This document shows positions 40,801-61,309 of a stretch of 64,000 nt of DNA, one piece after another (position 1 is the first letter of the stretch; the number at the start of each line of letters is the position of its first letter). The notes under the pieces are model-generated. The model had not been told where the DNA came from. It searched no databases and saw only the letters and a program-made list of their open reading frames with translations. The stretch lies in the IMG/VR virus record IMGVR_UViG_646311924_000007, positions 33,898-97,897 of that record; one strand, given 5' to 3'. This stretch comes from a virus. Its lineage: Duplodnaviria > Heunggongvirae > Uroviricota > Caudoviricetes. The translations under genes were made by a program, and so were the position numbers.

Positions 40801-41055
40801 AGATTGCTTTAGTTCTTCGCTCTGGTGGTGACTATAACGCTTCCGATGTGCAGTGGCTGGTTAATCAACTGCCAAAAGGCTATGAAATTATTTGCCTGAC
40901 AGACCTGAAGCGTTTACATGTACCTGGCGTCAAAGTTGTCCCATTGATCAACCAGTGGCAAAAGTGCCGTGGCTGGTGGGCGAAAATCGAGTTGTTCCGA
41001 CTGAACCGCCCCGGAAATCCTGGAGACTAAACTCCCTGAGAAAGAGGTAAACAGG

Positions 41056-41382
41056 ATGACTAAAAATACTCGTTTTTCCCCCGAAGTCCGTCAGCGGGCG
41101 ATTCGTATGGTTCTGGAAAGTCAGGATGAATATGACTCACAGTGGGCGGCAATTTGTTCCATTGCCCCAAAGATTGGCTGTACGCCGGAGACTCTGCGTG
41201 TCTGGGTTCGCCAGCATGAGCGGGATACCGGGGGCGGTGATGGTGGGCTCACCAGCGCTGAACGTCAGCGTCTGAAAGAGCTGGAACGTGAAAATCGTGA
41301 ACTGCGCCGCAGTAACGATATCCTTCGCCAGGCTTCCGCTTATTTTGCGAAGGCGGAGTTCGACCGCCTCTGGAAAAAATGA
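41056..41382 (+). CDS. IS3-family transposase OrfA (HTH)
   Basis: 108 aa, [23 protein letters not shown]..., leucine-zipper-like C-terminus. Confidence 0.85.
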
Positions 41383-42269
41383 TGCCACTGCTGGATAAGC
41401 TGCGTGAGCAGTACGGGGTCGGACCGGTATGCAGCGAACTGCATATTGCCCCGTCAACGTATTACCATTGTCAGCAACAGCGACATCATCCGGATAAACG
41501 CAGTGCCCGTGCGCAGCACGACGACTGGCTGAAGAGAGAGATACAGCGCGTATACGATGAAAATCATCAGGTGTACGGTGTGCGTAAAGTCTGGCGTCAG
41601 TTGTTACGGGAAGGAATCAGGGTGGCCAGATGTACAGTGGCACGTCTCATGGCGGTTATGGGACTTGCCGGTGTTCTCCGGGGTAAAAAGGTCCGTACGA
41701 CCATCAGCCGGAAAGCCGTTGCCGCAGGCGACCGCGTAAACCGTCAGTTCGTGGCAGAACGACCTGACCAGCTGTGGGTGGCTGATTTTACTTACGTCAG
41801 CACATGGCAGGGCTTCGTCTATGTGGCGTTTATCATTGATGTGTTTGCCGGATACATCGTGGGGTGGCGGGTCTCATCGTCTATGGAAACGACATTCGTG
41901 CTGGATGCGCTGGAGCAGGCGTTGTGGGCCCGTCGTCCGTCTGGCACCATCCATCACAGCGATAAAGGCTCTCAGTATGTGTCACTGGCCTATACGGAGC
42001 GACTAAAAGAAGCCGGATTACTGGCATCAACAGGGAGTACAGGCGACTCGTATGACAACGCGATGGCTGAGAGCATCAATGGTCTTTACAAAGCGGAGGT
42101 AATACACCGTAAGAGCTGGAAAAACCGTGCAGAAGTGGAACTGGCCACACTAACGTGGGTGGACTGGTATAACAATCGACGATTGCTGGGAAGGCTGGGC
42201 CATACTCCTCCGGCAGAAGCAGAAAAAGCTTATTATGCTTCCATCGGAAACGATGATCTGGCAGCCTGA
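41379..42269 (+). CDS. IS3-family transposase OrfB (DDE integrase domain)
   Basis: 296 aa; DDE motif context (WVADFTY..., [21 protein letters not shown]). Confidence 0.85.
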
Positions 42270-42812
42270 GTTCACAGATAAAACACTCTCCAGGAAACCC
42301 GGGGCGGTTCAGACCGGATATAACCGATGATCTGTTCTATCTGGATTTGGACACGGTTATTGCCGGTGATATACGCCCAATCCTTGAGAATCCACCAACC
42401 TGCTTCACCATGCTTAGGGATTTTTACCATCCACAATATCGTGGTAGCGGTGCCCTGTGGATACCAAATAGTGTAAAAGCACATATCTGGAGTTCATTCT
42501 GGCAAGATCCGGAAGGTTGGATTGCTCGTTGTGTCACTACTGAGTGCTGGGGTGATCAGGGGTTCTTACGGAAGGTTATGGGCGATGATACACCAGCATT
42601 TCAGGATCTGTATCCAGGATGGTTTGTAAGTTACAAGGCCGATGTTGTGGAACCTGGTTCAAAATATGCGAGCGCGCGTTACTCCAGGGGGAATGGGGCA
42701 TTACCAAAGGACTGCCGAATAATCTTTTTCCACGGCAAACCGCGGCCTCGCGAAGTGTCAGAGGATTGGCTTCCCCTCATTAGCTCGTTTTTTGAGCGAG
42801 AATCAGAATAAT

Positions 42813-42829
42813 ATTGCTCTAATAATTCC
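42813..42829 (+). promoter_or_regulatory. C1 operator-like 17-mer (ATTGCTCTAATAATTCC)
   Basis: 14/17 consensus match immediately after the stop of the interrupted gene. Confidence 0.55.
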
Positions 42830-42861
42830 ATATTTTTAAAACGTGATGTACACTCATCACG

Positions 42862-42878
42862 TTTTTTATTAGAGCAAT
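42862..42878 (-). promoter_or_regulatory. C1 operator-like 17-mer, inverted (ATTGCTCTAATAAAAAA)
   Basis: Inverted partner of the 42813 site; the two flank the palindrome ACGTGATGTACACTCATCACGT. Confidence 0.55.
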
Positions 42879-42892
42879 CTATAAGGTGCACT

Positions 42893-43111
42893 ATGTGGCC
42901 ATTCCGACGGAAATATCACTACTGGCTGATCGCCTTTGTTACGCCGACCGGCGGTATCAGGCATGTCATCACCAGGTATCGCAACAAGAGACTCACCTTA
43001 GCCAGAATTTTACAGGCTGCCATAGGTGAGGGACTGGATACAAATTGCGTAGTCCTTCCACCTTCATACTTAGGAAAAATGACCGAAGCACAAGCTAATA
43101 CGGAACTTTGA
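42893..43111 (+). CDS. small hypothetical protein (72 aa)
   Basis: ORF downstream of the twin operators. Confidence 0.3.
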   Translation: MWPFRRKYHYWLIAFVTPTGGIRHVITRYRNKRLTLARILQAAIGEGLDTNCVVLPPSYLGKMTEAQANTEL

Positions 43112-43112
43112 A

Positions 43113-59410: not shown

Positions 59411-59413
59411 ATA

Positions 59414-59430
59414 TTTGCTCTAATAAATTG
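59414..59430 (+). promoter_or_regulatory. C1 operator-like 17-mer (TTTGCTCTAATAAATTG)
   Basis: 15/17 consensus, 4 nt after the pacB stop. Confidence 0.6.
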
Positions 59431-59612
59431 TGTTTTTTAACTACCGATGTTACATTGAGCCTGACCTCTTGCGCCTTGAGGCATTTTCGGTTTATGCTTA
59501 TCAGGCACCTCATTAAAACGGGTGCCGGGATTGGCCTCCCGCTTAAGTCTAAGGCGATACAGACGCCGCTCGCGTCTTTTTTTGTATCGGCGTACACGCA
59601 CACCTCTACAAT

Positions 59613-59691
59613 GGTGGGCTGTATGGGGCTACCTTCGGGTAGGCTGGTTACCTTGGACGCCAGTAAGGCCAACTCCGTACAGTCCACCGCC
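59613..59691 (+). ncRNA. candidate second c4-like antisense RNA
   Basis: Begins GGTGGGC and ends CCACCGCC like the module-1 candidate; contains CCTTGGACG, 8/9 complementary to the icd-2 RBS region; boundaries approximate. Confidence 0.3.
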
Positions 59692-59748
59692 AGCAAGATT
59701 GGTCTCTTCTGCGGTGGTTACATACCAACGTCTAAGGAGGCTGCCAAT

Positions 59749-59970
59749 ATGGCTACTATCCCTACCCCAACTCATCCTGAATTTATCTGGCGCTTTTACT
59801 CCTGCCAAAAACGTCACTATCACTTCGTTATTGCACCAACAGAAGATGAGGCTCGCTCTCAGCTTCCTGACGCCCCATGTATTTTCTCTGCCCGTTTTTC
59901 CACTGATTCACGCAATTCTCTCAGTTACTGGTGCCTCCCTGTTAACGCTTCTGCTCAGGAGGGACTATGA
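59749..59970 (+). CDS. Icd-like protein, second copy (73 aa)
   Basis: MATIPTPTHPEFIWRFYSCQKRHYHFVIAPTEDEARSQLPDAPCIF... is a clear paralogue of Icd; stop overlaps the original ATG of the downstream ant-like gene. Confidence 0.7.
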   Translation: MATIPTPTHPEFIWRFYSCQKRHYHFVIAPTEDEARSQLPDAPCIFSARFSTDSRNSLSYWCLPVNASAQEGL

Positions 59971-60015
59971 GAATGAACCGCCCCGGGTTTCCTGGAGAGT
60001 GTTTTATCTGTGAAC

Positions 60016-60906
60016 TCAGGCTGCCAGATCATCGTTTCCGATGGAAGCATAATAAGCTTTTTCTGCTTCTGCCGGAGGAGTATGGCCCAGCCTTCCCAGC
60101 AATCGTCGATTGTTATACCAGTCCACCCACGTTAGTGTGGCCAGTTCCACTTCTGCACGGTTTTTCCAGCTCTTACGGTGTATTACCTCCGCTTTGTAAA
60201 GACCATTGATGCTCTCAGCCATCGCGTTGTCATACGAGTCGCCTGTACTCCCTGTTGATGCCAGTAATCCGGCTTCTTTTAGTCGCTCCGTATAGGCCAG
60301 TGACACATACTGAGAGCCTTTATCGCTGTGATGGATGGTGCCAGACGGACGACGGGCCCACAACGCCTGCTCCAGCGCATCCAGCACGAATGTCGTTTCC
60401 ATAGACGATGAGACCCGCCACCCCACGATGTATCCGGCAAACACATCAATGATAAACGCCACATAGACGAAGCCCTGCCATGTGCTGACGTAAGTAAAAT
60501 CAGCCACCCACAGCTGGTCAGGTCGTTCTGCCACGAACTGACGGTTTACGCGGTCGCCTGCGGCAACGGCTTTCCGGCTGATGGTCGTACGGACCTTTTT
60601 ACCCCGGAGAACACCGGCAAGTCCCATAACCGCCATGAGACGTGCCACTGTACATCTGGCCACCCTGATTCCTTCCCGTAACAACTGACGCCAGACTTTA
60701 CGCACACCGTACACCTGATGATTTTCATCGTATACGCGCTGTATCTCTCTCTTCAGCCAGTCGTCGTGCTGCGCACGGGCACTGCGTTTATCCGGATGAT
60801 GTCGCTGTTGCTGACAATGGTAATACGTTGACGGGGCAATATGCAGTTCGCTGCATACCGGTCCGACCCCGTACTGCTCACGCAGCTTATCCAGCAGTGG
60901 CATCAT
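60016..60906 (-). CDS. IS3-family transposase OrfB
   Basis: Protein identical to 41379..42269. Confidence 0.85.
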
Positions 60907-61229
60907 TTTTTCCAGAGGCGGTCGAACTCCGCCTTCGCAAAATAAGCGGAAGCCTGGCGAAGGATATCGTTACTGCGGCGCAGTTCACGATTTTCACGTT
61001 CCAGCTCTTTCAGACGCTGACGTTCAGCGCTGGTGAGCCCACCATCACCGCCCCCGGTATCCCGCTCATGCTGGCGAACCCAGACACGCAGAGTCTCCGG
61101 CGTACAGCCAATCTTTGGGGCAATGGAACAAATTGCCGCCCACTGTGAGTCATATTCATCCTGACTTTCCAGAACCATACGAATCGCCCGCTGACGGACT
61201 TCGGGGGAAAAACGAGTATTTTTAGTCAT
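60903..61229 (-). CDS. IS3-family transposase OrfA
   Basis: Protein identical to 41056..41382. Confidence 0.85.
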
Positions 61230-61309
61230 CCTGTTTACCTCTTTCTCAGGGAGTTTAGTCTCCAGGATTTCCGGGGCGGTTCAGAACGTCATTAGTCACC
61301 CGTGAAGAG

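Follow-up and report, generated by a model that had tools for sequence, protein, structure and literature searches.

Two identical insertion sequences in opposite orientation enclose 17.7 kb of a P1-like phage-plasmid. How this arrangement arose, which genes it affects, and whether the enclosed DNA can be inverted are the questions raised by this locus. The window, i.e., the whole stretch of 64,000 nucleotides that was analysed, is the final 64 kb of AP010962.1, which we take to be pO111_2, a plasmid from the enterohaemorrhagic E. coli strain O111:H- 11128.

Phage-plasmid context and content of the bracketed segment

The plasmid was recognised as a P1-like phage-plasmid from its synteny with P1, which covers immI, plasmid maintenance, the pmg genes, phd-doc, lpa, pacAB, and c1. 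From pmgN/ppp through pacB and c1, the backbone is colinear with that of bacteriophage P1 (Punavirus P1) and 97–98% identical to it. However, P1 lacks the second c4-icd-ant module, which occupies the pacB-c1 interval here, as well as an accessory block of ~7 kb and the two IS629 insertions. P1 too tolerates a resident insertion sequence, IS1 (PMC10999674). Besides P1, the P1-like phage-plasmids of STEC are the nearest counterparts of this plasmid.

The bracketed segment (42312–59973; 17,662 bp) was delimited using the annotation of relatives and P1 together with colinearity. It contains pmgQ′, pmgR, pmgS, pap, the non-P1 accessory block of ~7 kb, humD, phd-doc, pdcA/B, lpa, pacA with pac, pacB, an isrK-like RNA, a C4 RNA, and icd. 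The original prediction had placed humD, phd-doc, lpa, and pacAB in this segment, and the annotation of P1 and of the relatives agrees. The pac packaging site lies inside pacA (56915–57095, + strand) and is 98.3% identical to the P1 pac region by blastn, the cleavage sites of P1 being annotated.

Anatomy and family of the two IS629 copies

One inverted repeat pair was returned by a repeat search of the window, with arms of 1311 nt at 41001–42311 and 59974–61284 that were 100% complementary. Base 1311 of the arms is a chance match between flanking C's. By direct reading and string comparison, the element proper was 1310 bp in both copies, which were 100% identical to each other. Copy 1 lies at 41002–42311 on the + strand and copy 2 at 59974–61283 on the − strand, and the distance between them is 17,662 bp. 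These are the coordinates, lengths, and orientations that had been predicted. As the repeat is perfect over 1310 bp, a chance origin is impossible.

In copy 1, the ORF list gave orfA at 41056–41382 and orfB at 41379–42269, the latter in the −1 frame, and Rfam placed an ALIL frameshift pseudoknot at 41337–41453 (all on the + strand). The corresponding features of copy 2, all on the − strand, are orfA (60903–61229), orfB (60016–60906), and the ALIL pseudoknot (60832–60948; Rfam). The ALIL match scored 121.5 bits in each copy against a gathering score of 50. The orfA and orfB frames (0 and −1) overlap at GGAAAAAATGA, an A-rich slippery site, and frameshifting is predicted there from the sequence. 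The element begins with IRL TGAACCGCCCCGG... and finishes with IRR ...CCGGGGCGGTTCA. These terminal inverted repeats have TG...CA ends and are imperfect; they agree at all of the first 13 positions and at 22 of the first 25.

In the case of the encoded proteins, orfB matched the NCBIfam model NF033516 (transpos_IS3) with 316 bits (cutoff 160; E = 2.9e-94), and the IS products have Pfam records for HTH_Tnp_1, HTH_21, and rve, indicating a DDE (rve) transposase of the IS3 type. The element thus shows the properties of the IS3 family, namely, a length within ~1.2–1.55 kb, TG...CA ends, two ORFs in a −1 layout, a DDE transposase, and a direct duplication of 3–4 bp. Moreover, it is 100% identical to copies in other STEC plasmids that PGAP (NCBI) labels 'IS3-like element IS1203 family', with programmed frameshift, and a comparable element in OZ023075 was labelled IS629 by its depositors. 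IS1203 is presumably an isoform of IS629. Every feature of the element matches IS629/IS1203, the predominant IS of enterohaemorrhagic E. coli, and the insertion sites alone are peculiar to this plasmid.

Target duplications and origin of the pair

Each copy is flanked by its own direct 3-bp duplication. Copy 1 has GAC on its left (40999–41001) and on its right (42312–42314), and copy 2 has GAA on its left (59971–59973) and on its right (61284–61286); both pairs, as reported earlier, were read directly at the flanks. The comparison with an IS-free relative, which the original prediction had proposed, was carried out with p7_33_80A-2. The full 64 kb of the window aligns colinearly with this plasmid on a single strand, both IS sites included, with an identity of 97–100%, and the empty sites of p7_33_80A-2 hold GAC once and GAA once. 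When each IS was excised in silico together with one triplet, the pmgQ and ant reading frames were intact again.

Since each IS copy carries its own 3-bp duplication and p7_33_80A-2 is colinear with each triplet present once, the two copies are very probably independent simple insertions, as had been proposed. Under the copy-out/paste-in route of the IS3 family, two separate insertions would each have created a 3-bp duplication. No evidence contradicting the two-insertion reading was encountered. A duplication by chance or through assembly was ruled out by the distinct flanks, the proper duplications, and the same left junction in an independent assembly. The latter, the short-read assembly ERR351258, contains the same pmgQ::IS junction in a contig that matches 10.2 kb of the window with 100% identity.

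Identical inverted IS copies around a segment are also the formal architecture of a composite transposon, in which IS, 17.7 kb, and IS would have moved in, or could move out, as one block. This is the geometry of Tn5 and Tn10. However, the IS family differs from theirs, and the transposition chemistry of Tn5 and Tn10 differs from that of the IS3 family. The outer flanks here differ between the left side (GAC) and the right side (GAA), with a matched duplication within each copy, and the inner 17.7 kb occupies the same place in the same order and orientation in p7_33_80A-2 and P1, so it is native backbone. In addition, both outer ends of the structure are the IRL end of the element, and IS3-family elements transpose via a circle built from a single element's own two ends. 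A composite transposon was accordingly rejected as the origin on the unmatched outer flanks and the native inner DNA, and we consider it extremely unlikely.

The second copy could also have come from intramolecular replicative transposition of the IS26 type, which yields an inverted copy and inverted DNA in one step and would place identical inverted copies on one replicon, as is the case here. Such transposition in plasmids is documented for IS26 (PMC4471558). This route predicts a duplication that is split between the copies and inverted, but a direct duplication stands at each copy. It also predicts an inverted segment, but the segment is colinear with p7_33_80A-2 and P1. The duplication pattern and the colinearity refute it, and its probability is practically negligible. 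Two independent simple insertions are thus the reading that is carried forward below.

Copy 1 interrupts pmgQ

Copy 1 truncates pmgQ after codon 68. The 5′ part of the gene (codons 1–68; 40797–41001, + strand) was identified from the ORF list and from the P1 annotation, in which pmgQ follows ppp, and the called ORF (40797–41030) extends 29 nt into copy 1. Reconstruction across the IS placed the 3′ part, from codon 69 to the stop, at 42315–42811 (+ strand). The reconstructed PmgQ has 233 aa and is almost identical to P1 PmgQ. Neither this interrupted gene nor the interruption of the second ant at its third codon was part of the original prediction.

Copy 2 separates a second ant gene from its leader

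Between pacB and c1 lies a second antirepressor gene (ant), and copy 2 interrupts it in codon 3. The leader of this second immI-like module is preserved on the left of the IS. It consists of an isrK-like RNA element in its 5′ part (59505–59582, + strand; Rfam isrK, 60.8 bits) and a C4 antisense RNA (59607–59694, + strand; Rfam C4, 75.9 bits), and these are followed by an intact icd-like gene (59749–59970, + strand; NCBIfam phage_ICD_like), the coordinates of which were transferred from the annotation of a relative. The icd stop overlaps the ant start codon (ATGA). The start of ant (ATG AGA A...; 59967–59973, + strand) is stranded by copy 2, and the rest of the gene, which resumes at base 2 of codon 3 and ends with the stop, lies at 61287–62398 (+ strand). 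Reconstructed without the IS, ant encodes a 372-aa Ant. The first in-frame ATG of the remainder is at 61310, and the 362-aa ant product has Pfam ORF6N and ANT matches. The ant′-IS fusion ORF (59967–60206) has no called gene on the record.

By this arrangement, copy 2 separates ant from the c4-icd leader, which would be its normal route of transcription and translation. Following the P1 immI paradigm, and because no convincing ribosome-binding site precedes the ATG at 61310, we infer that ant is silenced by copy 2.

In P1, a CRISPRi study found pmgQ, ant1, and ant2 to be non-essential and lpa, pacA, and pacB to be essential (PMC10695390). The P1 counterparts of both interrupted genes are dispensable for plaque formation, which accounts for the insertions being tolerated; the interrupted ant is moreover a second copy that P1 lacks.

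Potential for inversion of the 17.7-kb segment

Long perfect inverted repeats are recombined by RecA so that the DNA between them is inverted, and 1310 bp is far above the homology needed. The pair would thus be a latent substrate for RecA-dependent homologous recombination that flips 17,662 bp. With the crossover located within the IS, a flip would leave every junction and gene as it is; only the block with pac, lpa, pacAB, and phd-doc would be turned around with respect to the remaining plasmid.

The molecule that was sequenced is in the parental orientation, as the duplications are matched within each copy and the order is that of P1 and p7_33_80A-2; the same two observations rule out a segment that had already been flipped. 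A synthetic junction of the inverted isomer (flank A, IS, and the reverse complement of flank C) was matched over its full length in none of the 5,426 complete E. coli genomes and nowhere in PLSDB. The prediction that recombination would invert the segment is therefore sound as a conditional statement on general knowledge of RecA, whereas the occurrence of the inversion found no counterpart in these genomes and plasmids. Inversion is mechanistically expected but unobserved, and a single orientation is on record. The record is an older finished assembly with 1.3-kb repeats, and its deposited orientation may come from synteny rather than from spanning reads.

Inversions that arose by homologous recombination between repeats have been documented in EHEC genomes (PMC7430833; PMC8743559). 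There, as here, long inverted repeats are the recombination substrates. However, the EHEC inversions were observed, are of megabase scale, and are prophage-mediated, while the present case is a possibility only and its sequenced form is un-inverted. An invertible segment of the Cin/Hin/Gin type is not indicated, as the 17.7-kb segment is bordered by complete IS elements rather than by short crossover sites. The annotation of the relatives has no recombinase gene within or next to the homologous segment. Its sole site-specific integrase in the vicinity is found past c1 and outside the segment, at what is presumably the position of cre in P1.

The perfect repeat, the location of pac within the segment, and the EHEC precedent would also suit a population-level switch, in which each orientation is reasonably frequent and flipping has a phenotypic effect, e.g., reversed pac packaging versus lox-cre. 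Against it, the inverted isomer was in none of the complete genomes or plasmids searched, and each insertion is confined to this plasmid lineage, so that no selection is visible across strains. As the junctions are the same after a flip, no gene fusion or promoter swap would result, and a dedicated recombinase is not involved. A second inverted pair, of IS1203, is present in the P1-like plasmid pUTAK-13-1 with its duplications intact, and it is likewise un-inverted. Such a switch is accordingly very improbable, and the preferred reading remains two independent insertions with a latent capacity for inversion.

In P1, packaging has a direction relative to lox. In a two-state genome, RecA would invert the pac-lpa-pacAB block, and headful packaging would then run the other way with respect to lox-cre and the backbone. 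The uncoupling of the second antirepressor from c4-icd by the IS might also be selected in that it stabilises the plasmid-prophage state; recurrence is supported by pUTAK-13-1, where this copy of ant carries a frameshift of independent origin. Taken jointly, these two proposals are highly unlikely. If true, two-state flipping would alter the gene content of the first headful's terminal redundancy.

Spread among other genomes and implications

No other strain in PLSDB or among the 5,426 complete E. coli genomes shared either insertion, and the exact IS junction strings had no match in IMG/VR. A query coverage of at least 80% was reached only in NZ_CP116049 and OZ023075, where each match was split in two non-contiguous pieces; in OZ023075, the IS is in ppp, at a site different from that found here. 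To our knowledge, no polymorphism is more common in EHEC genomes than IS629 insertion. The pair of IS629 insertions is ordinary, and the plasmid is a public annotated record.

The finding bears on how this plasmid lineage is assembled and followed. The orientation of the 17.7-kb block is beyond short reads, and assemblies of the lineage should be verified against reads spanning 1.3 kb. Precise excision would restore both disrupted genes, and in EHEC strains the IEE protein is reported to promote IS629 excision (PMC9943667). A flip, if it occurs, would reverse pac-directed packaging relative to the backbone, which would be measurable in virion DNA.

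Identity and structure of the IS629 pair

Scanning the entire window for repeats returned a single long inverted pair, with arms at 41001-42311 and 59974-61284 that were 1311 nt long, 100% complementary and 17,662 nt apart. Direct reading and string comparison placed the element proper at 41002-42311 (copy 1, + strand) and 59974-61283 (copy 2, - strand). Each copy was 1310 bp, with no difference between the two, the 1311th base of the arm being a flanking C that matched by chance. The target duplication was GAC/GAC for copy 1 and GAA/GAA, read on the + strand, for copy 2. The original prediction had described two identical copies, and both this description and its coordinates and features for the pair were correct.

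Both copies had the terminal inverted repeats TGAACCGCCCCGG...CCGGGGCGGTTCA and encoded orfA (108 aa) and orfB (296 aa), with orfB in the -1 frame and the overlap at GGAAAAAATGA. An ALIL frameshift-stimulating pseudoknot was predicted in each copy (121.5 bits; gathering score, 50), the products matched the IS3 transposase model (E=2.9e-94) and contained rve domains, and 100% identical copies in another plasmid were labelled 'IS3-like element IS1203 family transposase, programmed frameshift'. From these sequence features, the element was assigned to IS629/IS1203, which we take to be two names for isoforms of one element.

Source and backbone of the plasmid

Exact protein matches assigned the window to AP010962.1 (GCA_000010765.1, 97,897 bp), and the terminal 8.7 kb of that record was 100% identical to window 55310-64000. 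Since this match reached the final base of the record, the window corresponds to the last 64 kb of AP010962.1, presumably plasmid pO111_2. The right-hand part of the window was colinear with phage P1. A block of ~7 kb (45844-53079), located in place of the P1 pmgT-upfO region, had hardly any P1 homology, with only 326 bp matching; in relatives, the genes annotated in it are small and of lambdoid type (ead/Ea22-like, DUF4752, DUF551, ASCH, and toprim). The window also contained a four-tRNA-gene cluster (28095-30359), as in P1-like plasmids, and the sok antitoxin RNA of a hok/sok system (10231-10405), a second addiction module besides phd-doc. Phage-plasmids of the P1 type are common among STEC (PMC13596339). 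The host of pO111_2 was an O111:H- strain of enterohaemorrhagic E. coli recovered in Japan in 2001 (PMC9331969, 2022).

Separate insertion events and parental gene order

The complete, IS-free plasmid p7_33_80A-2 (NZ_CP074817.1) was colinear with the entire window on one strand at 97-100% identity. In this relative, the flanks of each IS were contiguous and every target triplet was single. Thus, the comparison with an IS-free relative, which the original prediction had proposed as a check, showed the bracketed segment to be native, and the empty sites together with a separate duplication for each copy supported its view of independent simple insertions. The relative is otherwise IS-free, but an IS91-family transposase insertion splits its Dam/DNA cytosine methyltransferase gene (NZ_CP074817.1 92557-94383); the corresponding site in the window, 25998-26000, was uninterrupted.

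Arrival of the pair as a composite transposon was rejected because the outer flanks were unlike (GAC beside copy 1, GAA beside copy 2) and the inner 17.7 kb was native backbone. An intramolecular replicative event of the IS26 type splits one duplication between the copies and inverts the segment; it was also rejected, since no duplication was shared and the segment was not inverted. A crossover between the copies would swap the inner flanks. As the duplications were matched, the deposited molecule has been inverted zero or an even number of times.

Interrupted genes and the second immI-like module

The original prediction was silent on which genes were interrupted. Copy 1 was located after codon 68 of pmgQ, in the P1 annotation the final gene of the C1-controlled pmgN-ppp-pmgQ operon, and in silico removal of this copy and one triplet restored a PmgQ of 233 aa, almost identical to the P1 protein. 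Copy 2 was located in the third codon of ant (ATG AGA ACG, after the A of ACG), between pacB and c1, and its removal with one triplet restored a 372-aa Ant.

Directly upstream of copy 2 were an isrK-like element (59505-59582) and a C4 antisense RNA (59607-59694), along with an icd-like gene, which was intact and overlapped the ant start with its stop codon. Together with ant, these formed a complete second immI-like module (59411-62431) between pacB and c1, beside immC. Comparison of P1 with the window gave no homology at 59409-62431; P1 is without this module. The canonical immI was also present at about 6.6-9 kb (6573-8993) and includes a separate C4 RNA (6694-6779) as well as the c4-a1b1 target element (6573-6625). 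Judged by sequence, the plasmid holds two C4/ant systems that share 81-87% identity over parts of their length. The second module is common, being found at a coverage of at least 80% in 278 of the 5,426 complete E. coli genomes.

In P1 immI, C4 controls the transcription and translation that pass through icd and on which ant expression depends. Because P1 ant requires this passage through icd, copy 2 most likely silences the second ant. In another P1-like plasmid, pUTAK-13-1 (L001, NZ_CP169009.1), the second ant was annotated as a frameshifted pseudogene (L001 26256-27373), an inactivation independent of IS629 copy 2. IS629/IS3-family elements were also observed in or beside ppp/pmgQ, at positions other than that in the window, in other plasmids with P1-derived DNA, namely OZ023075.1 pF1200-2 (L006 2555-3768) and NZ_CP116049.1 (26598-29604); the dispensable ppp/pmgQ operon appears to have been struck repeatedly by IS elements. 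When P1 was screened genome-wide by CRISPRi, plaque formation did not require pmgQ, ant1, or ant2 but did require lpa, pacA, and pacB (PMC10695390). Thus, the P1 counterparts of both interrupted genes are dispensable, the ant interrupted here being a paralog that P1 is without.

Search for the inverted isomer

A 1310-bp perfect inverted repeat far exceeds the homology RecA requires, and recombination between the copies would turn round window 42312-59973. A synthetic inverted-junction query, consisting of the 300-bp left flank, the IS, and the reverse complement of the 300-bp inner flank of copy 2, was run against 5,426 complete E. coli genomes and PLSDB. Neither a full-length match nor either insertion as a contiguous junction was found in these records, and the junction strings were absent from IMG/VR. 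A few places with 84% coverage each consisted of two separate pieces, and in the one examined, IS629 was located in ppp, another site.

In the short-read assembly of ERR351258, contig 19 was 100% identical to window 30797-41028 (10.2 kb) and ended 27 bp inside copy 1, a stop that is normal for short reads and uninformative on orientation. Since the contig covers the left junction of copy 1, the sample shares this insertion and may come from the same strain or from one very closely related to it. pUTAK-13-1 also had two identical IS1203 copies in opposite orientations, separated by 2.9 kb (L001 3001-4310, - strand; L001 7173-8482, + strand), one in a tail protein gene and the other after pmgN. 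Their duplications were intact (CTT/CTT and GTT/GTT), the order was colinear, and the intervening DNA was un-inverted.

The original prediction of inversion by recombination thus stands as a reasonable possibility for the 17.7 kb, undocumented and with no inverted isomer in the 5,426 genomes or PLSDB. Among the insertion sequences of EHEC, IS629 predominates, with copy number and locations differing among strains (PMC7430833), and O157 genomes provide documented cases in which inverted repeats underwent homologous recombination that caused inversion (PMC7430833; PMC8743559). The IEE protein promotes IS629 excision in EHEC (PMC9943667). The pair fits known EHEC/STEC patterns throughout, and the sequence is an already known, public annotated record.

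Consequences of an inversion

If the flip occurs, the crossover lies inside the IS, so the four IS-flank junctions would be unaltered and no gene would be broken or fused. The block with pac, lpa, pacAB, phd-doc, and humD would be reoriented relative to the replication origins, c1, and lox-cre. The pac site (56915-57095) was conserved. According to Sternberg and colleagues and Lobocka et al. 2004, P1 packaging reportedly proceeds from pac towards lox, which would place lox in the terminal redundancy of the first headful. After a flip, packaging would go the opposite way round the genome, and this reversal should matter only to Cre-dependent cyclisation in recombination-deficient recipients.
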